The notes below the pieces were generated by a model, which saw only the letters and a program-made list of their open reading frames with translations, ran no database searches and was not told the origin of the DNA. DNA of 64,000 bases from Candidatus Sericytochromatia bacterium (lineage in GTDB: Bacteria; Cyanobacteriota; Sericytochromatia; S15B-MN24; UBA4093): positions 160,001 to 224,000 of the forward strand of contig JAKFBU010000056.1 in the NCBI GenBank assembly GCA_036676985.1, in the 5' to 3' direction. The position numbers were made by a program, and so were the translations under genes. Each line of letters starts with the position of its first letter. The first letter of the stretch is position 1. Shown in pieces: positions 19,273-30,779 of the stretch.

Positions 19273-20529
19273 CTACGGCGTCAGCACCTCATCCGTCAGG
19301 TGAATCGCCTTGGACTGAACCTTCCACACCACATAGGTCCCGGACGTCACGTCCCCGTGGGCGTCCAGGTCCACCGGCCCCGAGGCCCCCTCGTAGTTCA
19401 CCGCCTGCCCGCTCTGCAACAGCGCGAGCCCCGCCTTGATCCCGTCCACGCCGGGCTTGACCGCCGTCCCCGACCCTGCCGACACGGCCTGGAGGTTGGC
19501 CTTGACGGCCTCGCGCGTGGCCGCCTGGCCCTTCTGCATGGCCATGGCGATGAGCATGGCCGCGTCGTACGCGTTGACCGCGTACGGCCCGGGCGGCAGG
19601 CGGAACCGTGCCTCGTAGTCCGCCGCGAACCGATCGTAGGTGGCGCCGCCGCTGTGGGGCGCCGTCCCGGTCTTGCCCTCGATCTTCGCCGCGTCCTTGA
19701 CGTTGACCACGAACGAGTCCGCCTTGAGCGCCTCGCTGAACAGCCACGGCATCTGCGGCTCCGAGCCGCTCGTGATCCAGTCGTTGTAGATCTGGCTGCC
19801 GGCTCCCGGATAAGCGATGAGGGCGATCGCGTCCGGCTTCTGGGCGAGCACGGGCGTGATCACGTCGTTGTACGACGACCGGGGCGTCGCCTCGTCGGGA
19901 TACGTCACCTGGACCGTGGTACAGCCCTCGTTGGCCTCGAAGGACTGCTTGAGGACCCCCGCCAGGCCATTGCCGTAGGTGTTGTTGACGTTGACGATGC
20001 CGAGCTTCTTGTAGCCGGCCTCGAAGGCGCGCTTGGCGATCGCCTTCCCTTGCAGGGCATCGGTCGGCACCGTCCGGAAGAAGAAGCCCTGGTGATCGAT
20101 CTTCGCCGGGTCGCTGAAGTCCGGCGAGGTCGAGCCCGGCGACACCATCACGCAGCCCTTGGGCATGGCCTCTTTCAGGAGGACCTCCTTGGTGACGCTG
20201 GACTGCACGTTGCCGATGAGGGCCACCACGCCCTGGTCGAGTAGCCTCGCCGCCTTGGGCAGGGCCTTCACGTTGTCCGACTGGTCGTCCGCCTTGAGCA
20301 GGGAGAGCTTCTTGCCGAGCACGCCGCCCGCGGCGTTGATCTGCTCGACGGCGAGCGTGGCGCCGTTGTAGACCGACTCGCCCTTCTCGGCGTTGGTGCC
20401 GGAGGCGGGGCCGATGACGCCGACCTTGATGGTCTCCTCGCCGGACGCGCCGAAGGTGCCCGGCGGCACTAGGAAGCAACCCGCCAATGAGAGGCTCGTG
20501 GCCGCGATGAGCGCGTAGAGCTGTCGCAT
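19273..20529 (-). CDS. LivJ/Peripla_BP_6-type substrate-binding lipoprotein
   Basis: Lipobox LAGC; AVEQINAAGGVLG, FFRTVPTD, NAYDAA; RBS GGAGG. Confidence 0.88.
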   Translation of the reverse strand: MRQLYALIAATSLSLAGCFLVPPGTFGASGEETIKVGVIGPASGTNAEKGESVYNGATLAVEQINAAGGVLGKKLSLLKADDQSDNVKALPKAARLLDQGVVALIGNVQSSVTKEVLLKEAMPKGCVMVSPGSTSPDFSDPAKIDHQGFFFRTVPTDALQGKAIAKRAFEAGYKKLGIVNVNNTYGNGLAGVLKQSFEANEGCTTVQVTYPDEATPRSSYNDVITPVLAQKPDAIALIAYPGAGSQIYNDWITSGSEPQMPWLFSEALKADSFVVNVKDAAKIEGKTGTAPHSGGATYDRFAADYEARFRLPPGPYAVNAYDAAMLIAMAMQKGQAATREAVKANLQAVSAGSGTAVKPGVDGIKAGLALLQSGQAVNYEGASGPVDLDAHGDVTSGTYVVWKVQSKAIHLTDEVLTP

Positions 20530-20540
20530 CCGCATCCCTC

Positions 20541-22643
20541 CTAGAAGCCCTGGCTGATCCGCAGCAAGAAGGTCCGACCGAGGCCCTGGTAGTCGACGCC
20601 ACCGTAGCCCGGCTGCGCATAGGTCGCATCGAAGACGTTGGCGACCTTGAAGCTGATGACGGCCTCCTTCTCGCCCAGGAGGTAGACGTCGCGGCTCGTC
20701 AGCGTCAGGTCCGTCACGAACGAGGGGGCGATCGCATAGGCCTCGTGACCGTTGACGGCGAAGTTCGCCTGGCTCGACGGCACCCAGTGGACGTAGCGCT
20801 CTTCGAGGAACCAATTGAGCGGCAAGGACCAGAGCCGTGCGCCGACGCCCGCGTTGACCATCCACGCCGGATAGGGCTCCGGCACGCCATCGGGATCGGG
20901 AAAGCCGCTCGCGAGCGTGGGCACGGTCGACTGCAAGGACGTGTTGAGCATGCCGTGCAGGAAGCTCCAGCGCCACTTGAGGCCCGTCTCGATGCCCGCC
21001 GAGTCCAGCTGGCCCAGGTTGACGGCGAACGGGTTGCCGTTCCGGGTGAAGAAGCTGACCTTGTCCGACACGTGCGTGTAGTAGATGCTGCTCGACAGGT
21101 CCAGGGCCCGGCTCGGCGCGTAGCTGATGGCGCCCTCGAGGGTGCTCGCGCGCTCCGGCTTGAGGTCCTCGTTGCCGAGGATGTCCCCGAACAGGAGCGG
21201 CTTGCCGTAGAGCTGAGGGGCCGACGGCGCCTTGAAGGACGTTCCGTAGAGCGCCTTGGCCGTCATGGACTCGTTGACCCGGTACACCAGGCCGAGACGC
21301 GAGCTCAGGTTGTTGCCGTAGACGTTGTGCACGTCGTTGCGGAGGTTCATCGTGACGCCGATGTCCTCGGTCGGGTAGTAGATGCCCTGGACGAAGCCGC
21401 CGAGGTTGTCGAGCTGGACCATGGCGCCGGGCTGACCGTCGGGCACCGTTTGCCCGGCGCGAGTCCCCGTGGTGAAGACGTCGAAGTAGCTGGGGAGCCG
21501 GTGAGTGGCCCGCGTCCAGTCCGCCCCGACCGTGAGCGTGTTGCGATCGTCCACCGACCACGTGAGGTCCGTGGAGACGTCCCAGCCCTCGGCGCTCAGC
21601 TTGCGCTGGATGTAGTAGTCCGTGCGGTCGATGCTGATCCGGTCGTCGGCGGTCGGCGCGCCATACGAGTAGGCGACCGCGCTCGACAGGCTGAAGGCGC
21701 TTCCCAGGGCCTGGCGGGCCTGGGTGCGCAGGTAGCGGTTGTCCTGCGAGATCCGGTTCTGATGCGTCAGGGGTTTCCAGTCCTGGAACTCGCCGCCGGC
21801 ATCCAGACGCTGGAAGGCACCGTCCACCGAGAGGTCCAGGCCATTGAGGGGGCGGAGGGCGAGCCGGCCGAAGAAGGAGCCCGGCGCGCTCAGGTCGTTG
21901 ACCGACTCGACCTTGCCTTCCTTGGTCAGAGCGGCGATGGACGGGCTCGTGCCGGGGACCTTGAGGCCGGAGCGATCGCCCCTGCCGAGCGACGCGCCCA
22001 ACGACAGGTCCATGGACGCGAGCTCCTGGGCCGTGCCGAGGGACAGCGCTCCGCTCTGCGAGGGCAAGGCGCCCCGCAGGCCCGCATTGGCCTCGAGCCG
22101 CGTGCCGTCCAGGTCCTCAGCGCGCTTGGTGACGACGTTGATGACGCCCAGGAAGGCGTCCGCGCCGTACAGGGCCGAGGCCGGACCACGGATGATCTCG
22201 ATCCGCTTGACCAGGTGAATCGGGATGAGCTCGGGTCCCAGCCAGTTGGACCCGTCCGGCCGGTAGGGAACGGGCTGGAGGTCGATCATGAGCTTGACGA
22301 TGCGGCTCCAGGAGCGCTGGCCGCTCGAGAGGCCGCGCACGCCCACGTTGGGCAAGAGCTGGTCGTCGACCACGTAGAAGCCGGGAACCGAGCGCAGCGC
22401 CTCGGCCACCGACGCATAGCCCCGCTCGCGGATCTCCTCGGCCGTGACGACCTCGACGACGGCGGGCGCCTCCTGGGTCGTCTGGTTGCGCTTGGTCGCG
22501 ATGCCGACCTGCGAGGTGTTGAACAACGCATCCAGGTCCAGCTCCTCGCCCACCTCCTGCGCATGCGCGGGGCCGCACAGCAAAGTGGCCGCGCAAAAGG
22601 CGGCCAGCGAACGGACGAACAGAGGGTGCGAGAGGTAGCTCAT
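20541..22643 (-). CDS. TonB-dependent outer-membrane receptor
   Basis: Signal peptide; plug motif RIEIIRGPASALYGADAFLGVINVVTK; LKPERA; C-terminal Phe. Confidence 0.92.
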   Translation of the reverse strand: MSYLSHPLFVRSLAAFCAATLLCGPAHAQEVGEELDLDALFNTSQVGIATKRNQTTQEAPAVVEVVTAEEIRERGYASVAEALRSVPGFYVVDDQLLPNVGVRGLSSGQRSWSRIVKLMIDLQPVPYRPDGSNWLGPELIPIHLVKRIEIIRGPASALYGADAFLGVINVVTKRAEDLDGTRLEANAGLRGALPSQSGALSLGTAQELASMDLSLGASLGRGDRSGLKVPGTSPSIAALTKEGKVESVNDLSAPGSFFGRLALRPLNGLDLSVDGAFQRLDAGGEFQDWKPLTHQNRISQDNRYLRTQARQALGSAFSLSSAVAYSYGAPTADDRISIDRTDYYIQRKLSAEGWDVSTDLTWSVDDRNTLTVGADWTRATHRLPSYFDVFTTGTRAGQTVPDGQPGAMVQLDNLGGFVQGIYYPTEDIGVTMNLRNDVHNVYGNNLSSRLGLVYRVNESMTAKALYGTSFKAPSAPQLYGKPLLFGDILGNEDLKPERASTLEGAISYAPSRALDLSSSIYYTHVSDKVSFFTRNGNPFAVNLGQLDSAGIETGLKWRWSFLHGMLNTSLQSTVPTLASGFPDPDGVPEPYPAWMVNAGVGARLWSLPLNWFLEERYVHWVPSSQANFAVNGHEAYAIAPSFVTDLTLTSRDVYLLGEKEAVISFKVANVFDATYAQPGYGGVDYQGLGRTFLLRISQGF

Positions 22644-22844
22644 GCGCGTTCCGAAGCAGGGCGACGATGCAGTTATACCCCCGGTCCATCAAACGGCACC
22701 ATGCCGACCGAGGATCATTGACGGTCTGTCGGTTTGAGCACGGGGGCCAGTGGTATAATCGCGTTAGCTTGGTCCTATCGTACGTTGCCAATGGGCTGCC
22801 GACCCAACGTCGAGCGCACCGGCCCGTTTGCAGGAAGGAGCCCT

Positions 22845-23342
22845 ATGCCGACCGCGGTTTCCTCTTACGGCGCCGAGATCACGTTCAGCCCCAAGTGGTG
22901 GAGCTACGTGAGTTCGACCCGCATCATGGTTTCGAGCTTCTGCAACGTGGCCCTGGCCAACGAGGACATCGCGGACAAGATCGCCATGACGGCCCAGGAG
23001 CTCTTGGAAAACGCGGTCAAGTACTCGGCCAACCCCGACGAGAACGTCGCCCTGCGCTTCTCCATCGACAACGACGAACGGATCTCGCTCGAGGTGACGA
23101 ACCACGCGAGCCCCGAGAGCATCGCCACCCTGCAGGATCAGCATGCCGAGATCAGCGAGGGTGACCCCTTGATGGCCTACCTCCAGAAGATGCAGCGCAT
23201 CGCCATGGATCCGGGCGCCGAGGGCAGCCAGCTCGGTCTGGCGCGCATCCGCTACGAGACCGGCAACGAGCTCCAGCTCCGGATCGACGGCGACAAGGTC
23301 ACCGTGCGGGTCGAGTTCAACCTCAACAAGGCGGCAGAGTAA
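22845..23342 (+). CDS. Stand-alone GHKL Ser/Thr kinase (SiaB/RsbW-like)
   Basis: N-box ELLENAVKYS, G2-like GSQLGLARI; AAGGAG RBS. Confidence 0.75.
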   Translation: MPTAVSSYGAEITFSPKWWSYVSSTRIMVSSFCNVALANEDIADKIAMTAQELLENAVKYSANPDENVALRFSIDNDERISLEVTNHASPESIATLQDQHAEISEGDPLMAYLQKMQRIAMDPGAEGSQLGLARIRYETGNELQLRIDGDKVTVRVEFNLNKAAE

Positions 23343-23728
23343 TGAGCAAGTTCGCAACCCTCGGCTTCAAGAACGACAAGGTCCAGATCTCCGTCGACGA
23401 GCGCGACGGCGGCATGATCATCAAGTTCAAGGGCAACATCGACGACGCCAACCCCGGCGCTTTCCTGGACCCGGCCCTGGAGGACATCCACCAGCAGGTG
23501 CTTGCGCACAAGCTGGGCGAGGTGGACGCGGACTTCACGGAGCTCTCCTTCCTCAACTCGAGCGGCATCAAGAGCCTGATCAAGTGGATCATGCGCCAGA
23601 CCGAGCTGCCCGAGGGCCAGAAGTACAAGATCAAGTTCCTCTACTCCAGCCGCATCACCTGGCAGCAGACCAGCCTCAAGGCCCTCACCTACCTGGCTCC
23701 CAAGACGGTCGTCGCCGTACCGGTATAA
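23342..23728 (+). CDS. STAS/SiaC-like phospho-acceptor protein
   Basis: DFTELSFLNSSGIKSLIKWI; TAATG coupling to the kinase. Confidence 0.72.
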   Translation: MSKFATLGFKNDKVQISVDERDGGMIIKFKGNIDDANPGAFLDPALEDIHQQVLAHKLGEVDADFTELSFLNSSGIKSLIKWIMRQTELPEGQKYKIKFLYSSRITWQQTSLKALTYLAPKTVVAVPV

Positions 23729-23731
23729 GCA

Positions 23732-25429
23732 GTGGATCAAGAAAAGGTCTTCTCCGCCCTCCAAGACTCCGCCCCCCCGGAAGGTTCGACGGGGTCGCCC
23801 GACTATGCGGCCGTCGCCAACGGGTTCAAGGCCATCAGCGAGGCCAAGACGACGGATGACATGCCGTTCGCCCTGCTGATGCAGGCCATCGGCCTCGTGG
23901 GTGCCGCGCACGGCGCCATCGTGGACCGCGAGGGCAACGTCACGGCCGCCATTCCCTTCGGCACGAGCTCCAACCTGCCCCTCAAGGATCCCGCCATCTG
24001 GGAGCGCGAGATGGGCCAGGTCCACACCCTGCCCGTGACGGGCGGCCGGGTGCACACCGCCCTGCGCTTCGCCCTCAAGGCCGACGATGACCTCGCCATG
24101 GTGCTCGCGAGCCCCTCGGGCGCCTTCATTGCCCCTGAGCGCCTCTTCGCCATCCAGCTGTTGGCAAGCTTCGCCAACAGCCGCGCGCAGTACCTGCTCG
24201 CGCGCCAGGAGGCCGACGAGGCCCAGACCCAGGCCAAGGAAGCCCACGAGCAGCAGATGGAGATGGCGCTCCGGCTCTACGACCTCTACGAAGAGGCTCA
24301 GAACCAGGCCATCACCGACGGCCTCACGGGCCTCGCCACCCACGCCTTCTTCCAGCAGCGGCTCGCCCAGGAAATGAGCGAGAGCTTCCGGTACCACCAC
24401 CCGCTCAGCTTCATCATCTTCGACCTGGACCACTTCAAGCCCATCAACGACACCTACGGCCACCAGGCGGGAGACATCGTGCTGCGCGAGTCCGCCGCCA
24501 TGCTCAAGGCCAAGGTGCGGACCTCGGACCTGGTCGCGCGCTACGGTGGCGAGGAGTTCGCCATCATCCTGCCGCAGACCACCGAGGACGACGCCTACAA
24601 CCTGGCCGAGCGCCTGCGCATCGAGCTCGAGCAGATGGAGTTCCAGGTCAACGCGGACCGTAAGCTCAAGGTAACGGCGAGCATTGGTCTGGCGAGCCGG
24701 GGCGAGAACGATGCCACCCCCAAGGAGCTCATCAAGCGCGCCGACATGGCCCTCTACGCCGCCAAGAACGGCGGCCGCAACCGGGTCGTGCGCGCCCAGG
24801 GCCCGGCCGCCGAGGCCGTGAACGCCATCGGCGCCCCCCGCAAGGGCTCGCAGGAGATGTTCCTAGCGCTCGCGCGCGCCCTGTCCGCGGCCATCGAGGC
24901 CCGCAGTCCGATGCTGCACGGCCACTCGGAGGCCGTGGGCGAGCTCGCCCTGCGCATGGGCAAGGCGCTCGGCCTCCATCCGGACAAGCAAGAGGCCCTG
25001 ATGATTGCCGGCATGCTGCACGACGTGGGCATGCTCGCCGTCCCCGAGGCCGTCATCCTCAAGCCCTCGGCCCTGAACGACGAGGAATGGGCCCAGATGA
25101 AGGCGCACCCCCAGGCGGGTGTGGCCATCCTCTCGCGCTTCAGCACGTTTGCGGGCCTGCGCGAGGCCGTGCTCTATCACCACGAGCGCTGGGACGGCAA
25201 GGGCTATCCCGAGGGCCTCAAGGGCGAAGGCATCCCCATGGGGGCGCGCATCCTCGCGGTGTGCGACGCCTATGACGCCATGATCCGCGGCGACTACGCC
25301 TACGGCATGGGCGTGCCCGAGAAGGAAGCCGCCGCGGAGATCAAGCGCTGCGCGGGCACCCAGTTCGACCCGCAGCTCGTCGACCTGTTCCTCGGCGTCC
25401 TGTCGGGCATGGGCCAGCAGGGAGCCTAG
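23732..25429 (+). CDS. GAF-like + GGDEF + HD-GYP c-di-GMP enzyme
   Basis: RTSD/GGEEF; HDVG and HHERWDGKGYPEGL. Confidence 0.92.
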   Translation: MDQEKVFSALQDSAPPEGSTGSPDYAAVANGFKAISEAKTTDDMPFALLMQAIGLVGAAHGAIVDREGNVTAAIPFGTSSNLPLKDPAIWEREMGQVHTLPVTGGRVHTALRFALKADDDLAMVLASPSGAFIAPERLFAIQLLASFANSRAQYLLARQEADEAQTQAKEAHEQQMEMALRLYDLYEEAQNQAITDGLTGLATHAFFQQRLAQEMSESFRYHHPLSFIIFDLDHFKPINDTYGHQAGDIVLRESAAMLKAKVRTSDLVARYGGEEFAIILPQTTEDDAYNLAERLRIELEQMEFQVNADRKLKVTASIGLASRGENDATPKELIKRADMALYAAKNGGRNRVVRAQGPAAEAVNAIGAPRKGSQEMFLALARALSAAIEARSPMLHGHSEAVGELALRMGKALGLHPDKQEALMIAGMLHDVGMLAVPEAVILKPSALNDEEWAQMKAHPQAGVAILSRFSTFAGLREAVLYHHERWDGKGYPEGLKGEGIPMGARILAVCDAYDAMIRGDYAYGMGVPEKEAAAEIKRCAGTQFDPQLVDLFLGVLSGMGQQGA

Positions 25430-25432
25430 GGA

Positions 25433-27982
25433 ATGGCGGGTCCCGTCGATCCCGGCATGGGCGATCGCCCGCGCCGCAAGCGCAAGAAGAAGCCGCAGCT
25501 GGGACCGAACGGCAAGCCCCTCAAGCGCAAGAAGAAGAAAACGAAGCAGGGGGGAAGCCTCGCGGCCCCCTTGCTCGCGGCGTTCGGCGCCGCCAAGCTG
25601 AACCCGGCCGAGTTCGCGGCCAAGTTCCGCACCAAGAAGGAACGAAAGACCGACGACCTGCGCGGCACGCTGATGCTCGGCTTCGCGGTGCTCGCCATCC
25701 TGCCCATGTTGGTCGCCGTGGTACTCATGACGCGGATCGCGGAGCAGGGCATCGTCGTCTCCACCGACGAGCTGGCGCGCATCAGCCGGGATACCCTCTC
25801 GGAGACCTCGGGCAAGATTGGCGAGCTCTCCAAGTACCAGATCGACAGCACGGGCGAGCAGCTCACGGACATGGGCTCCAAGGCCGTCCGTGACACGGCC
25901 CAGGCCCTCATCACCACCTCGGAGCAGCGCTTCAAGGACGCCAACCAGCAGCTCATCGAGCAGGGTGCAAAGTCCAACCAGGCCCTCTCGGAGCAGCTGG
26001 TCAAGGAGAGCAAGGACGCCACGCGCGAGCTGGCTCGCAGCCTCATCAAGGTGAGCGAGGAGTCCAACCGCGAGCTGTCCCGGTCCACGGCCAAGCAGGC
26101 CGAACAGACCATCGTGCAGCTGGCCGATCGGCTGGTCGAGCAGGCCAACCGCAACACCAGCGCCATCAGCACCTACATCGTCGCGCAGAACAAGGAATCG
26201 GCGAAGCGCCTGAGCGAGCGCATGCTCAAGGACGTCGAGCGCGAGCCCGTCGTCAACTTCAAGACGCTCGCGAGCATCTTCGCCCAGGGCATCGCGACCA
26301 ACAAGGTGGCCCCGATCCGGGACGGCTACCTCGCCGTCGTCGATCCGCGCGGCCGGGTGCTCGCGAGCACCAAGTACAAGAAGGGCACCTCCGTCCGCCA
26401 CCTGGAGATCATCCAGCGGGCGCTCGGCAAGGAGACGTCCGAGGACAGCCTCATCCGGTTCAAGGACGGCAATGACCAGTACCTGGGCGTCTTCGCCCGT
26501 CGTGACGACGGGGGGGCCGTCGTGTTCGCCTACCTCGCGGACCGCGCGAGGGTCGACACGGACCGGATGAAGGACGACGTCCAAAACACGCTCAACCAGA
26601 TGGGCAGCGACTCGTCGCGCTACGTCATCCAGAGCATGGAGGACGCTCGCCCGCTCATGCGCGCGCAGGCCACCAAGCTCTCCAAGCAGTCCATCGGCAA
26701 GATCCAGGCCACGAGCGCGGCCCTCAGCGCCAAGACCTCCAAGCGGATGCAGACGCAGGCGGACATCGTCTCGGCCCGGGCGGTCGCGCGCATGACCGAG
26801 CGCTCGGAGGCGGTGGCGGCCGAGACGGCCGAGGCCATCAAGCAGCGCTCCGAGGAGATCGCAACCCATGCCCTGGAGGCCATGCGCCCCATCGGCAAGG
26901 AGTATGCCGCCAAGGCGGAGGCCGCCATGCGGGCCGAAGCCGAGAAGGCCGTCATGGAGACCGCCGAGATCGTGCCCCAGGCGGCCGAGGCGGCGAGCCA
27001 GAAGGCCACGGCCCAGATGGCTCCCGAGGCCCGCCGCCTGGCGGACCGCGCCAAGCAGCAGATGTGGCTGGTCGCAGGCATCCTGCTGGTGCTCGAGATC
27101 ATCCTGGCCATCGTGGCGAGCCTCCTCATGTCCGGCCGCATCGCGGCCCCCATCATCACCGAACAGCAGAAGGCGCGCGAGGAGAAGGAGCGGCTCGGCC
27201 GCGAGATGGAGATCGCCTCCAAGATCCAGACCTGCTTGCTGCCGCCGGTGCCGGAGCTCAAGGACTTCGACGTGGCGGTGTCCATGGTGCCGGCCGAGGA
27301 GGTGGGCGGCGACTTTGTCGACCTGTTGCCGGACGCGGAGCCCGGGGCCTTCTGGATGGGCATCGGCGACGTGACGGGCCACGGCCTCACGCCGGGCCTC
27401 ATCATGATGATGGCGCAGAGCGTGTTCAATTCGCTGGCGCGCACGCCGGACATGACGCCCAAGGCTCTCTACGACGGCATGAACCGGGTGCTGTACCAGA
27501 ACATCAAGGACCGGCTCAAGACCTCGGATCACATGACCATGTCCATCCTCAAGCACGAGCCGGACGGGACGTTCGTGCACTGCGGCTCGCACCTGGACAT
27601 CCTGGTGTACCGGGCGGAGACGCGCGAGGTCGAGCGGCTGGTGACGGACGGTCCCTGGGTGGGGATGCTGCCCGAGTGCGAGGACTTCACGACGGAGATC
27701 ACGTTCAACCTGGGCGAGAACGACGTGTTGCTGCTGTACACGGACGGCCTCATCGAGGTTCAGAACGCGCAGCAGGAGCAGTGGGACATGGACCGCCTCT
27801 GCGAGTCCCTGGCGCGCCACGCGCACCTGGGCGCGCGCGAGATCCAGGCCAAGGTGCTGGCGGACAGCCTGCACTGGGCGAACAAGGTGCTGGACGACAT
27901 CTCCATGCTCGTCGTGAAGCGCAGCGCCATCGAGCTCACCTCGACCGTGCCCCAGGCGGACGTTGAGCCGGTCGTGGTCTAG
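25433..27982 (+). CDS. Membrane PP2C/SpoIIE phosphatase (SiaA-like) with long periplasmic stalk and Cache-like domain
   Basis: Two TMs; GGDFVD, DVTGHG, YTDGL, DD motifs. Confidence 0.9.
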   Translation: MAGPVDPGMGDRPRRKRKKKPQLGPNGKPLKRKKKKTKQGGSLAAPLLAAFGAAKLNPAEFAAKFRTKKERKTDDLRGTLMLGFAVLAILPMLVAVVLMTRIAEQGIVVSTDELARISRDTLSETSGKIGELSKYQIDSTGEQLTDMGSKAVRDTAQALITTSEQRFKDANQQLIEQGAKSNQALSEQLVKESKDATRELARSLIKVSEESNRELSRSTAKQAEQTIVQLADRLVEQANRNTSAISTYIVAQNKESAKRLSERMLKDVEREPVVNFKTLASIFAQGIATNKVAPIRDGYLAVVDPRGRVLASTKYKKGTSVRHLEIIQRALGKETSEDSLIRFKDGNDQYLGVFARRDDGGAVVFAYLADRARVDTDRMKDDVQNTLNQMGSDSSRYVIQSMEDARPLMRAQATKLSKQSIGKIQATSAALSAKTSKRMQTQADIVSARAVARMTERSEAVAAETAEAIKQRSEEIATHALEAMRPIGKEYAAKAEAAMRAEAEKAVMETAEIVPQAAEAASQKATAQMAPEARRLADRAKQQMWLVAGILLVLEIILAIVASLLMSGRIAAPIITEQQKAREEKERLGREMEIASKIQTCLLPPVPELKDFDVAVSMVPAEEVGGDFVDLLPDAEPGAFWMGIGDVTGHGLTPGLIMMMAQSVFNSLARTPDMTPKALYDGMNRVLYQNIKDRLKTSDHMTMSILKHEPDGTFVHCGSHLDILVYRAETREVERLVTDGPWVGMLPECEDFTTEITFNLGENDVLLLYTDGLIEVQNAQQEQWDMDRLCESLARHAHLGAREIQAKVLADSLHWANKVLDDISMLVVKRSAIELTSTVPQADVEPVVV

Positions 27983-28175: not shown

Positions 28176-29369
28176 CTAGATGTAGTAATCCACCAACTCG
28201 AGCAAGCTCGTAAACGGCCAGTCATACCACGGGCGGGTGAACGGCTCCGTGATGGGCGTCGAGATCGCCCAGTCCGTCTCGAACAGCCGCCCGTTCAGCT
28301 CCTGCAAGAGCGCCGGCTCGCGAACCGCCACGCCCAGCTCCTGGTTGATGTTCAGGGCCCGCGCATCTCCGTTGGCCGAGCCCACCAGCGCCCAGGCCCC
28401 GTCCACCGCGAAGTACTTCACGTGGTTGTACCGCTGCGTGTACGAACGGATCTCCGCTCCCGCCTTCATCAGGGCATTCGCCGAGGTCGAATTCAATCGC
28501 TTGAAGATCGGGCTGCCGTTCGCCCCCGGCACCAGGATCCGCACCGCCACGCTGTTCTTCCGCGCGTCGAGCAGCGCCTTCAAGAGGCCGTCATCCGACA
28601 GGTACGGCGATTCCACCTCCACCTTCCGCGTCGCCGAGCGAATGGCGGCGTACAAGGCTTCCCGGATCTCGAAGCGCTGCTCGGCCGGGCTCGTCACGAG
28701 CACCTGGTCCGGGCTGTCCTTCACCGGTCCTTCGGGCAACTGGAAGGGAGCACCGCCCGCGACCTTCCAGTCGTAGGCGAACTCGCGGTGCAGGTCGCGC
28801 GCGATCTCGTCGTCATTGAACTCCACGAGCATGTCGTGCCGATCGTGCCGGAACTCGTCCGTGAGGTTCATGCCGCCGGTCAGGCCGCGCGTCCCATCGG
28901 CGAGGTACAGCTTGCGGTGCGTGATGTTGACGCCCCGACCGATGGAGTGCCAGTCGTAGACCCGTGCGTCCACGCCGCGCTCCTTGAGATAGGCCACGAC
29001 TCCCCGCTTGGAGTTGGCCTCGAAGTAATTGCCGATCTGGTCGATGAGGACGCGGACCTTGATGCCTTCCTTGGATCGCGCGACCAGCAGGTCGCAGAGC
29101 TCGCGGCCCGACTTGTCGTGCCAGAAGTTGAAGGTCTCGATGTAGATGGAGTGCTTGGCCTCGCGGACCACGCGCGCGATGGCCGCGTAGTTCGCATCAC
29201 CGTCCAGGGTCAGCCTGGGGATGTCCGCTTCGACGACATGCGAGCCAGAGGAGGTGGGAGAAAATGGCGTGGTCCCACGGCGCTCCGCCTGCAGGGGCGA
29301 CAGTCCGCACCCGACCAAGCTCAGCGACAAGGTCGCCAACAGCGCCCATCGTGTGGCCATTCCTAGCAT
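28176..29369 (-). CDS. Phospholipase D/cardiolipin synthase-like lipoprotein
   Basis: Two HKD motifs (HRKLYLAD, HVKYFAVD); lipobox LVGC. Confidence 0.85.
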   Translation of the reverse strand: MLGMATRWALLATLSLSLVGCGLSPLQAERRGTTPFSPTSSGSHVVEADIPRLTLDGDANYAAIARVVREAKHSIYIETFNFWHDKSGRELCDLLVARSKEGIKVRVLIDQIGNYFEANSKRGVVAYLKERGVDARVYDWHSIGRGVNITHRKLYLADGTRGLTGGMNLTDEFRHDRHDMLVEFNDDEIARDLHREFAYDWKVAGGAPFQLPEGPVKDSPDQVLVTSPAEQRFEIREALYAAIRSATRKVEVESPYLSDDGLLKALLDARKNSVAVRILVPGANGSPIFKRLNSTSANALMKAGAEIRSYTQRYNHVKYFAVDGAWALVGSANGDARALNINQELGVAVREPALLQELNGRLFETDWAISTPITEPFTRPWYDWPFTSLLELVDYYI

Positions 29370-29459
29370 CCACGTCCTCCTGCCATGACCTTTAACAGCT
29401 TCTTATCGAAGTGCTAATGACGTTATCGCAGGTGAGCGCGAAATCTTGCGCCGCCGAGA

Positions 29460-30779
29460 TTAGCCGATGGGATCCGGGACCTCTGCGGCGGGCACCGTAT
29501 GCTTCAGGCCCTCGAGGATGAAGAGGTCCAACTGATCCGTCTTGCCCCGGATGGCCACGTCGCGCACCGGGCGAACGATCACGCGATCCTTGATCTCCAG
29601 GTAGGTCTCGGCGCTGAGTAGGATGTCCACCCCGTGATCCTTGGTCAGGCTTTCGATGCGGCTCGCCGTGTTGACCGCGTCGCCGATGGCCGTGTAGTCA
29701 AGGCGCTGATCGGTCCCGATATTGCCGATCACGGCCTCACCCGTATGGATGCCGATGCCGATCCGCAGGGGCGCCTCTCCGGTGGCCGCACGCTCCCGGT
29801 TCAGGGCGTCGAGCTCCTGGCGCATGCGAAAGGCGGCCTGGACCGCACGCCAGGCGTGGTCCTCCTGGGGCACCGGCGCCCCGAAGACCGCCATCATGCC
29901 GTCGCCGATGTACTTATCGAGCGTGCCCTCGTAGGAGAAAAGCGCGCCCACCATTCGTGAGAAGTAGGCGTTCAGCAGCGAGACGACATGCTCGGGAGGC
30001 ATCTGCTCGGACATGCTCGTGAAGCCCCTGATGTCCGAGAAGAGAAGCGTGACGCGCCGCCGCTTGCCCCCGACCCGGGTGAGGTCCTCCTGGAGGATCG
30101 TGTCGGCCACCTGCTGAGAGACATAGCGCGAAAGCACGCCGCGCACGCGCAGGGCCTCGGTCTGCATGCTGGCGGCCTCGCCGATGAGTTCGCGCGTCTT
30201 GGCCACCATCAACAGAGAGCCGCCCGTCGTGCCCAGCACGAGCATCAGCAGCAGCACGAGGATCGGGACCAGGAAGGCCTCATGGTGAATCGCCGTATCG
30301 ATCCACATGACCTCCGCCACCACCGCCAGGCAGCACAGCCCGCTCACGATCGCCTGGCGCGTGGACAAGCGAAGACCGTTCAGGCCGTTGAGGACGAAGG
30401 CGAAGATCAGGCTCATGTCGCTCCGCGCGAGGGTCTTGTTGCTCTCGGAATCAAAGCCCCAGATGGAATGTGCGTACAGGAAGGAGGCCATGAGGGCGAA
30501 GTCCAGGACGATGGCCACATAACCCAGGGGCCGGGCCGGGAAGGGTGTCCGGATGAGCCACGCGAGGACGAGCGCTCCCACCAGGACCAGGGAGAGGGCC
30601 GTGACGTCGAACCAGATGCTGCCCTCGAAGCCGTAGGTGGCGATCCGCACGGGCATCAGGACGAAGAGCGCGATCGCGAGCAGGGTGATCCGGACCAGGC
30701 CGATGCGCTTCTCGGCGGCGCGGATTTCGCGCTCCGTCAGGACCTCAACGATGTTCTCGGGCTGGGGGGTCGTGGCCAT
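29460..30779 (-). CDS. Membrane class III adenylate cyclase
   Basis: FSDIRGFT, DKYIGDG, GDAVNTASR; about 5-6 TM. Confidence 0.9.
   Translation of the reverse strand: MATTPQPENIVEVLTEREIRAAEKRIGLVRITLLAIALFVLMPVRIATYGFEGSIWFDVTALSLVLVGALVLAWLIRTPFPARPLGYVAIVLDFALMASFLYAHSIWGFDSESNKTLARSDMSLIFAFVLNGLNGLRLSTRQAIVSGLCCLAVVAEVMWIDTAIHHEAFLVPILVLLLMLVLGTTGGSLLMVAKTRELIGEAASMQTEALRVRGVLSRYVSQQVADTILQEDLTRVGGKRRRVTLLFSDIRGFTSMSEQMPPEHVVSLLNAYFSRMVGALFSYEGTLDKYIGDGMMAVFGAPVPQEDHAWRAVQAAFRMRQELDALNRERAATGEAPLRIGIGIHTGEAVIGNIGTDQRLDYTAIGDAVNTASRIESLTKDHGVDILLSAETYLEIKDRVIVRPVRDVAIRGKTDQLDLFILEGLKHTVPAAEVPDPIG

Follow-up and report, generated by a model that had tools for sequence, protein, structure and literature searches.

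How far from the inner membrane can a bacterium place a ligand sensor, and what would such a sensor report? The question is raised by a gene at 25433..27982 (+) in a stretch of 64,000 nucleotides from a Candidatus Sericytochromatia bacterium (GenBank assembly GCA_036676985.1, contig JAKFBU010000056.1, positions 160,001 to 224,000 of the forward strand). We call this whole stretch the window, and coordinates refer to it unless another locus is named. Bacterial receptor sensor domains are normally taken to sit at the outer face of the inner membrane. The 849-aa protein encoded by the gene has the domain order transmembrane helix (TM1), 168-residue helix, Cache/PDC-like module of about 105 residues, second 168-residue helix, second transmembrane helix (TM2) and SpoIIE/PP2C phosphatase. 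An earlier reading of the DNA, made from the sequence only, postulated that the part between the membrane helices is an antiparallel stalk of 15-residue repeats, about 22 nm long and carrying a Cache-like sensor, which could reach the outer membrane where a TonB receptor sits or could serve as an envelope ruler. The observation behind this proposal is here confirmed and extended, and its structural reading is supported by prediction.

A 15-residue period in two arms of equal length

The topology is fixed by the Lys/Arg-rich N-terminal tail and the cytoplasmic PP2C domain, which places the approximately 440 residues from one membrane helix to the other outside the cytoplasm. The Cache-like module sits between the two membrane helices and is extracytoplasmic as judged from hydropathy and topology. 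The sequence-only reading had divided the remainder into ten 15-residue units on the way out and nine on the way back, and these were found in the register it had claimed (residues 118-267 and 409-543). The length it assigned to the arms did not stand: the arms run over residues 102-269 and 376-543, and both have 168 residues, that is 11.2 pentadecads, with no stutter. When the sequence is written in rows of 15, the rows of arm 1 mostly open with a small residue (Ser, Gly, Ala, Asn) and the rows of arm 2 mostly with Met, which occupies a core position in most repeats.

The periodicity analysis, which had been suggested as a check, gave a period of 3.75 (15/4) in both arms. Relative to 500 shuffles, the BLOSUM62 self-similarity of the protein has z = 8.1 at lag 15 and 7.1 at lag 30 in arm 1 (residues 103-267), and z = 5.3 and 4.5 at the same lags in arm 2 (residues 394-543). 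The Fourier spectrum of hydrophobicity peaks at period 3.75 in arm 1 with a power of 261.8 and in arm 2 with a power of 121.6, the 99th percentiles of the shuffle maxima being 89.4 and 87.6, respectively; the same shuffle tests gave no comparable 15-residue or 3.75 signal in residues 268-393 or in the cytoplasmic residues 575-849. When hydrophobicity is averaged over 12 members of the family the best period is exactly 3.75 (power 218.7 in arm 1 and 157.8 in arm 2), and the heptad (3.5) and hendecad (3.67) periods have a power of just 0.1-1.7 in the arms. The phase of the 3.75 wave is constant within about 30 degrees over ten 30-residue windows per arm, and the power never collapses. Four to five positions per 15 residues form the hydrophobic core, in strict phase; the composition of the arms is otherwise polar, rich in Ala, Ser, Thr, Gln and Glu, and the hydrophobic stripe is narrow. 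A 15/4 periodicity belongs to the right-handed type of coiled coil, and the 3.75 hydrophobic period that marks a pentadecad coiled coil is present over both arms.

The signal is exceptional in its own genome, where the phosphatase ranks first of 4661 open reading frames (ORFs; at least 150 aa, GC content at third codon positions above 0.75) with a 3.75 power of 181, the 99.9th percentile being 133. Two ORFs of the same genome, on contig C53 (from 19496, +) and contig C38 (from 202645, +), have a 3.67 (11-residue) periodicity with a power of 160 and 193, and by their sequences they would be long hendecad-type repeat proteins.

No tandem repeat of 45 nt was found in the DNA of the gene. Origin of one arm from the other by duplication was considered and rejected, since hhalign gave a probability of 5.7% and nothing detectable. 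Because there is no repeat at the DNA level and no homology was detected between the arms, the periodicity is structural and old and does not stem from a recent expansion. Some features of the arms should be noted in their own right. The conservation profiles of the two arms, both read from N to C, correlate with r = 0.57 (maximum of the shift controls 0.42), but not when compared at equal height (r = 0.09). Pro486 is present in 92% and Gly488 in 83% of the 12 sequences (26888-26896); they lie in the middle part of arm 2, some 57 residues away from TM2, and may act as a hinge. Pro407 and Pro531 are also frequent in the family. In arm 1 no Gly or Pro reaches a frequency of 60% in these sequences, and Asn212 (26066-26068; 92%) occupies a core position which other repeats fill with Ile, Leu, Val or Phe; it may form a buried polar layer there.

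The structure of the protein was predicted with AlphaFold2, which gave, as the sequence-only reading would have it, two long continuous helices flanking a small alpha/beta module. The model of the whole protein, built on 14 aligned sequences, has a mean predicted local distance difference test score (pLDDT) of 62.8 and contains unbroken helices at residues 77-269, where TM1 runs on into arm 1 as one helix, and at 376-525. A second run on residues 208-468 gave the same elements at a mean pLDDT of 72.8. The arms have a pLDDT of 65-72 and the tip of about 80. When the full model was compared with solved structures by VIA-align, it aligned with 303 of the 309 residues of the chemoreceptor hairpin of Thermotoga maritima (2ch7_A; model residues 118-525, Z 11.7), over 267 residues with HAMP-Tsr (3zx6_B) and over 280 residues with the Rad50 coiled coil; a phasin and an antifreeze hairpin are also among the helical matches. 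The prediction thus supports an extended antiparallel hairpin comparable to those of chemoreceptors and Rad50. The antiparallel stalk of the original proposal is retained as a prediction and its length of 22 nm is not, because 168 residues per arm with a rise of 0.15 nm per residue give about 25 nm, to which the tip would add about 3 nm. The width of the periplasm in model bacteria is of the same order.

The module between the arms is predicted to consist of a helix (276-288), two strands (298-303 and 308-312), a helix (325-331) and three strands (341-345, 348-356 and 362-368), which is the pattern of a PDC domain flanked by long helices. Residues 271-373 align with the dCache domain 9hvj_A with Z 11.0 and a root mean square deviation (rmsd) of 2.4 A over 102 aa. 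About a dozen more dCache/sCache domains match at Z 8-9.8 and rmsd 2.4-3.4 A; the next in rank are 6mni, 7k5n, 7psg, 8bmv, 3lif, 4exo, 4k08 and CitA (2j80), with Z 8.0-9.8 and rmsd 2.5-3.4 A. The structures matched in this way are the membrane-distal modules of dCache and sCache ligand-binding domains. A Foldseek search with the model is led by the extracellular domain of WalK and by dCache domains (probability 0.99-1.0), with PAS domains too (E 1.4e-5 to about 1e-3 overall), and the sCache leads in the Atlas feature search are all below 0.9. The Cache-like sensor postulated for the tip of the stalk is therefore recovered as a fold match of the model. We name it Cache/PDC-like by fold only, since its sequence stays below the Pfam threshold for Cache. 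A sequence search of the periplasmic part against the proteins of solved structure gave just chance matches to designed armadillo repeats (E about 1). The tip is the most conserved part of the periplasmic region, and its invariant polar residues N275, S312, T313, R356, Y367 and D375 would suit a ligand pocket.

The family to which the protein belongs is tiny and confined to Sericytochromatia. A HMMER search with the periplasmic part against 1.84 billion representative proteins gave 7 matches, 6 of them true relatives; a match to a HEAT-repeat protein (P0021) was discarded as an artefact of composition. A word-index search gave 14 matches, and contig searches found 11 loci in genome_contigs and 3 in metagenome_contigs. 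Among 401 genomes sampled across the phylum 11 have the domain, and within the class it occurs in 11 of 47 genomes; the named records are metagenome-assembled genomes of Candidatus Sericytochromatia, and the genome studied here has one copy. All true relatives carry SpoIIE/PP2C, and no other output domain was found fused to the sensor among them. The periplasmic length is 445-450 aa in 12 homologs of 25-63% identity. Within it the only differences are an insert of 3 residues in the tip and, in one lineage, a deletion of 1 residue in arm 2 next to a position which has Pro515 in other sequences; arm 1 is without indels, and neither gain nor loss of 15-residue units was seen in the arms of these 12.

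The receptor cassette and the operon

What the sensor might respond to is suggested by the neighbouring genes (Table 1). Divergent from the operon of the phosphatase lies the gene for a TonB-dependent receptor, directly followed by the gene for a lipoprotein type I periplasmic binding protein, which in the plain ORF list is hidden inside a longer, wrongly started ORF and escaped the sequence-only reading. The signal peptide of the binding protein ends in the lipobox LAGC, the Cys of which is invariant in 7 of 7 orthologues. The protein is 54.5% identical over 387 aa to the binding protein of locus L017 (tblastn) and stays below the cut-off of the LivJ-like model of NCBIfam. Genes for permeases or ATPases of the ATP-binding cassette (ABC) type were found beside the binding protein in none of the loci examined, and no gene for a FecR-type anti-sigma factor or an extracytoplasmic function (ECF) sigma factor was among the proteins scanned around the operon. 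In the receptor, about 30 residues separate the signal peptide from a TonB-box-like stretch. An acidic motif, approximately E-L-D-L-D/E-x-L-F, precedes this stretch (22500-22560, -) in 6 of 6 readable orthologues. The receptor and binding-protein pair is a recurring two-gene cassette in Sericytochromatia and is also found away from the phosphatase (L040, L041, L044).

The linkage was followed through 15 loci, the window and L025-L038. An orthologous receptor and/or binding protein adjoins the phosphatase gene in 8 of them, and the arrangement varies: the genes are divergent in the window, in L036 and in L025 (a receptor fragment at the contig end), follow each other on one strand as receptor, binding protein and phosphatase in L029 and L031, have the order receptor, phosphatase, binding protein in L038, and are convergent in L030. 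The order in L033 is binding protein, binding protein, receptor, phosphatase, a protein with the signalling domain of methyl-accepting chemotaxis proteins (MCP), kinase and STAS. Such varied arrangements argue for selection on the linkage. Since the genome studied here has only 4 genes for TonB-dependent receptors in 4.68 Mb, adjacency by chance would be expected with a probability of about 1%. The three genomes whose phosphatase locus clearly lacks the cassette carry such a pair elsewhere, with the receptor followed by the binding protein. Of the 27 genomes in the order, 10 have the phosphatase, and a match to the binding protein at E <= 1e-60 was obtained in 8 of these and in 0 of the 17 others. 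Two genomes thus have the phosphatase without such a match; in one of them, G025, the phosphatase gene is flanked by a truncated gene for the binding protein where the contig ends. A more distant binding protein (33-37% identity) occurs without the phosphatase in 6 further genomes of the wider class, all from one genus. The idea of a sensor tied to a TonB receptor thereby gains real support from the comparison of genomes, as far as gene linkage and co-occurrence are concerned; a physical link between phosphatase and receptor is putative. A complex prediction of the tip, with three pentadecads per side, and the mature binding protein gave a score of 0.00 and a mark of 0.32, which speaks neither for nor against binding.

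On the cytoplasmic side the assignment of the phosphatase is clear, with a Pfam SpoIIE (PF07228) match of E 8.2e-34 and 117.7 bits (cut-off 25). In the model its PP2C fold matches best the RsbU-like domain of Rv1364c (3ke6_B; Z 22.7, rmsd 2.4 A over 213 aa), followed by the PP2C domain of SiaA (6k4e_B; Z 22.0 over 239 aa, aligned from model residue 581), and Foldseek agrees on the fold (E 4e-11). D627, D646, D771, D821 and D822, which are candidates for the metal-binding aspartates, are invariant in 14 sequences. The linker helix between TM2 and this domain is strongly conserved, with many invariant residues within 582-599. The Lys/Arg-rich N-terminal tail of about 75 residues is absent or shorter in 8 of 13 aligned homologs; only the closest relatives have the full version.

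Three genes upstream of the phosphatase, on the same strand and with overlapping or nearly touching ends, code for a kinase-like protein, a STAS-like protein and a GGDEF-HD-GYP protein, and this gene order is conserved in 7 further loci. The kinase-like protein scores 65.3 bits against the slr1658 superfamily of NCBIfam, which is below the cut-off. Its ORF has 202 aa and a TTG start and is about 37 residues longer than the homologs (161-166 aa), and these lengths make the Met at about 22845 the probable start. A start at this position would leave a divergent intergenic region of about 200 bp common to the operon and the receptor gene. The STAS-like protein scores 51.9 bits against the slr1659 superfamily (cut-off 100), and its orthologue in locus L019 is above the STAS cut-off of Pfam; it is the likely phospho-substrate of the phosphatase. 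The GGDEF-HD-GYP protein, encoded directly upstream in the same operon, is the likely output, which would be turnover of cyclic di-GMP (c-di-GMP). In a distant branch of the family the genes of the phosphatase and of the kinase/STAS pair are separated by one for a soluble protein with an MCP signalling domain (L033, 11245-12435, which equals L018, 4433-5623). In this branch the MCP-domain protein appears to replace the GGDEF-HD-GYP protein, and the same stalked input would thus serve another output.

Table 1. Positions of the parts of the phosphatase gene and of neighbouring genes in the window
Feature	Position	Strand	Description
Lipoprotein type I periplasmic binding protein (Peripla_BP_6)	19273..20535	-	directly downstream of the receptor gene
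TonB-dependent receptor	20541..22643	-	Pfam Plug 9.2e-18, barrel 3.6e-31; divergent from the operon
HATPase_c_2-type kinase-like protein (slr1658 superfamily)	22734..23342	+	Pfam HATPase_c_2 25 bits, cut-off 27.4; DUF6272
STAS-like small protein (slr1659 superfamily)	23342..23728	+	Pfam STAS E 0.0029, 17.8 bits, cut-off 22.6
GGDEF + HD-GYP protein	23732..25429	+	Pfam GGDEF 1e-49, HD_5 3.2e-38; NCBIfam GGDEF
Phosphatase, cytoplasmic N-terminal tail	25433..25669	+	residues 1-79; Lys/Arg-rich, pLDDT <50
Phosphatase, TM helix 1	25670..25735	+	about residues 80-101; hydropathy windows >1.8 at residues 76-104
Phosphatase, stalk arm 1	25736..26239	+	residues 102-269; predicted outward helix, 11.2 pentadecads
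Phosphatase, tip sensor	26240..26557	+	residues 270-375; single Cache/PDC-like alpha/beta module
Phosphatase, stalk arm 2	26558..27061	+	residues 376-543; predicted Ala-rich returning helix, 11.2 pentadecads
Phosphatase, TM helix 2	27062..27142	+	about residues 544-570; hydropathy; model helix 540-565
Phosphatase, cytoplasmic linker helix	27143..27241	+	residues 571-603; model helix 572-600; leads into the phosphatase domain
Phosphatase, PP2C/SpoIIE domain, C-terminal tail and stop codon	27242..27982	+	Pfam SpoIIE residues 637-830

The gene neighbourhood is rich in second-messenger genes. Downstream of the phosphatase, at 28176-30779 (-), are genes for a phospholipase D (PLD)-family protein with a signal peptide and for a multi-pass membrane adenylate/guanylate cyclase.

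A possible route from the outer membrane and its alternatives

The model which we propose hypothesizes that the protein acts as the sensor phosphatase in a pathway of partner-switching type. The part outside the cytoplasm would in vivo be an extended antiparallel hairpin of about 25 nm, built from two helices of 168 residues with unbroken 15/4 periodicity and carrying the Cache/PDC-like module at the far end. This stalk would put the tip in the outer-membrane-proximal periplasm, near the inner face of the outer membrane, where it would monitor a solute from the dedicated TonB-dependent receptor, either free or in complex with the lipoprotein binding protein of the cassette. A change of conformation in the tip would be conducted through the two continuous helices and TM1/TM2 to the conserved linker helix, and the linker would set the activity of the PP2C domains, presumably dimeric; this is the direction of regulation that we infer. 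The PP2C domain would strip from the slr1659/STAS-like protein the phosphate placed there by the slr1658-like kinase, and the unphosphorylated STAS protein would switch partner and so control the GGDEF-HD-GYP enzyme or, in the other branch, the MCP-signalling-domain protein.

That a tip sensor near the outer membrane reports a receptor-imported solute to the partner switch we give a probability of about 0.5. The full route, in which receptor and lipoprotein address a Cache module under the outer membrane and a rigid pentadecad stalk of about 25 nm acts as a mechanical wire to the PP2C switch and a c-di-GMP or chemotaxis-like output, would be an undescribed way of signalling across the envelope, and we put it forward tentatively.

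Several observations weigh against the model. On the side of the structure, the confidence of the prediction is modest (predicted template modelling score, pTM, 0.34-0.36; arm pLDDT 65-72), the alignments are shallow (12-14 rows), and AlphaFold2 is prone to draw long helices from shallow alignments. A Z of 10-12 for long helical hairpins indicates, by the scale of the tool itself, a common arrangement; that common arrangement, an extended antiparallel hairpin in the model, is however precisely the point in question. If the arms pair antiparallel, positions at equal height might be expected to resemble each other, and neither hydrophobicity (r = -0.11) nor conservation (r = 0.09) gave such a match outside the shift controls. 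The lone indel in the arms is of 1 residue and not a multiple of 15. The sequence of the tip reaches only 13.3 bits (E 0.06) with the dCache_1 model of Pfam, the cut-off of which is 45. The length of about 25 nm was set against the periplasm of model bacteria, the width of which may not be that of this uncultured host. On the side of the receptor, Pfam finds Plug and barrel only and no N-terminal STN signalling domain, and 7 of the 15 loci are without receptor or binding protein in the DNA examined, at least 4 of them being cut off where the contig stops within the gene or close to it. The co-occurrence counts in the order are not independent, and 8 of 10 against 0 of 17 overstates their independence, because the genomes are kin.

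The alternative which survives best takes the stalk to be a plain spacer that lifts an ordinary small-molecule Cache sensor past the peptidoglycan; receptor and binding protein would then be co-regulated targets or neighbours in a shared regulon and would not be the source of the signal. Cache modules usually bind small ligands directly, the six polar residues of the tip are invariant, 7 of the 15 loci are without a cassette in the DNA examined, and the divergent genes of the window would fit co-regulation as well. At variance with it are the strict phyletic co-occurrence in the order, the linkage which outlasts rearrangements, including those with receptor, binding protein and phosphatase on one strand, and the lack of transporter genes beside the binding protein. 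We consider this explanation unlikely, though it deserves to be kept in mind.

The second alternative accepts the helices and disputes the extension. The helical regions would fold back into a bundle of about 12 nm, like the sensors with double four-helix bundles, so that the Cache module would be near the inner membrane and the periplasm would not be spanned. The modest confidence of the models and the shallow alignments leave room for this, as do the conserved Pro486/Gly488 and the frequent Pro407 and Pro531 in arm 2 and the missing height-matched signal between the arms. It has to be set against the 3.75 wave, the phase and power of which never break in any of the 30-residue windows, so that the arms have no room for a turn; this and the lack of frequent Gly or Pro in arm 1 further disfavour a fold-back. 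Both AlphaFold2 runs, moreover, gave continuous helices, and the match to a long hairpin extends over about 300 residues. A compact fold therefore seems to us rather improbable.

The third alternative, already raised by the sequence-only reading, is an envelope ruler or mechanosensor: a rigid stalk would bridge the periplasm with its tip against the outer membrane or the peptidoglycan, and changes in envelope width or load would bend or compress it and thereby set the activity of the phosphatase. In its favour the estimate of about 25 nm is of the order of the periplasm widths of model bacteria, and the length is invariant down to 27% identity but for the 3-residue insert in the tip. Signalling by the Rcs system of E. 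coli depends on the distance between inner and outer membrane (PMC5736177). An invariant length, however, fits equally well with the plain constraint that two paired arms must keep register, the tip has a conserved ligand-sensor fold, the specific linkage with genes for a receptor and a solute-binding protein speaks for chemical sensing, and Pfam finds no domain which binds peptidoglycan or outer membrane. The data do not require a ruler, and we regard it as a doubtful candidate. Finally, it is very improbable that the 15-residue units are surface-bound amphipathic repeats of late embryogenesis abundant (LEA) or apolipoprotein type, binding lipid or polymer and lying along the membrane or the peptidoglycan without a coiled coil, since for all the polar composition, the narrow hydrophobic stripe and the phasin and antifreeze hairpin among the structural matches, the arms are equally long, enclose a folded domain, are tethered to the membrane by two helices, keep four to five core positions per 15 residues in strict phase and match no repeat family in the Pfam scan.

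If the model of a receptor-linked sensor at the end of a stalk is true, ligand sensing can be placed on the outer-membrane side of the peptidoglycan, and the problem solved by FecA-FecR would have a second, mechanistically different answer, with cell-surface signalling that needs neither FecR nor ECF sigma factors. The protein would be a natural model for how conformational signals travel over about 25 nm of non-heptad coiled coil, with a length-locked right-handed hairpin as the conductor, and its invariant length and perfect 15/4 register make it well suited to matched repeat-deletion work. A probable input would also be assigned to the poorly understood partner-switch proteins of slr1658/slr1659 type in the cyanobacterial lineage. 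The host is a non-photosynthetic relative of the cyanobacteria, and the fact that the gene is accompanied by those of an outer-membrane importer and a binding protein suggests a new kind of signalling from the outer membrane inwards.

Comparison with known systems

In the literature covered, which excluded subscription journals, no description was found of a periplasmic Cache sensor on a stalk, of a PP2C partner switch linked to a receptor, or of pentadecad periplasmic coiled coils in this architecture. Separate features of the protein do have counterparts. The RsbU protein of Chlamydia trachomatis is reportedly a membrane sensor phosphatase with a periplasmic Cache-like domain, and sensors of RsbU type sit next to the membrane. 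They share with the protein described here the order of transmembrane helix, periplasmic Cache/PAS-like module, transmembrane helix and PP2C domain and presumably the kinase/STAS partner switch; the difference is that about 168 helical residues are added here on each side of the sensor module.

PP2C sensor phosphatases are known to remove phosphate from STAS-type proteins which are phosphorylated by a kinase of HATPase type. The closest likeness in operon content is to Pseudomonas aeruginosa, where a diguanylate cyclase is under the control of the SiaABC(D) partner switch (PMC7647112). That operon combines a PP2C phosphatase, a kinase, a STAS-like phosphoprotein and a diguanylate cyclase; ours has clear PP2C and GGDEF proteins and, with matches below cut-off, a candidate kinase and a candidate STAS-like protein. 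The diguanylate cyclase of the window has an additional HD-GYP domain and is not a SiaD equivalog (163.1 bits with the SiaD model, cut-off 290), the kinase and STAS proteins are placed, below cut-off, in the slr1658/slr1659 superfamilies, and the stalked sensor is without counterpart in SiaA; a HAMP domain is lacking here. For PP2C domains which are dimerised by coiled-coil linkers, a general mechanism of transduction has been proposed (PMC12143880).

For the stalk the best match in shape, by the model, is the cytoplasmic hairpin of MCPs (2ch7, 3zx6), with which it would share a very long antiparallel helical hairpin of fixed length. The MCP hairpin, which conveys signals along its axis, is heptad-based and cytoplasmic and ends in a kinase-control tip, whereas the stalk described here is pentadecad and periplasmic and ends in a sensor, and there is no match to the MCPsignal family of Pfam. 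Pentadecad right-handed coiled coils are known from the stalks of trimeric autotransporters and from the VASP tetramerisation domain, where three or four chains run in parallel over short to moderate lengths. The 15-residue repeat and the hydrophobic period of 3.75 are the same; the model has here an intramolecular antiparallel pair with 11.2 repeats per arm, inside a signalling protein.

In the FecA-FecR-FecI system a TonB-dependent receptor is tied to an inner-membrane protein, and the anti-sigma factor is proteolysed. Common to both systems is a receptor linked genetically to an inner-membrane protein, the periplasmic part of which would need to reach the receptor and which would convey to the cytoplasm information on the imported substrate. 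Here, by contrast, the receptor has no STN domain, the operon has no FecR-like or ECF sigma gene, and the proposed output would be dephosphorylation of Ser/Thr and c-di-GMP and not proteolysis of an anti-sigma factor. The pairs LuxP-LuxQ, TorT-TorS and MBP-Tar are sensors which depend on a binding protein, and they resemble the locus in that the gene of the binding protein lies next to that of a membrane sensor and is not accompanied by transporter genes. In our case the binding protein is a lipoprotein whose gene is paired with that of an outer-membrane receptor, the sensor module is on a putative stalk, and an interaction of binding protein and sensor would be hypothetical. None of these systems unites all of the features described. 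There is good precedent for the output side; what is new is the input side.

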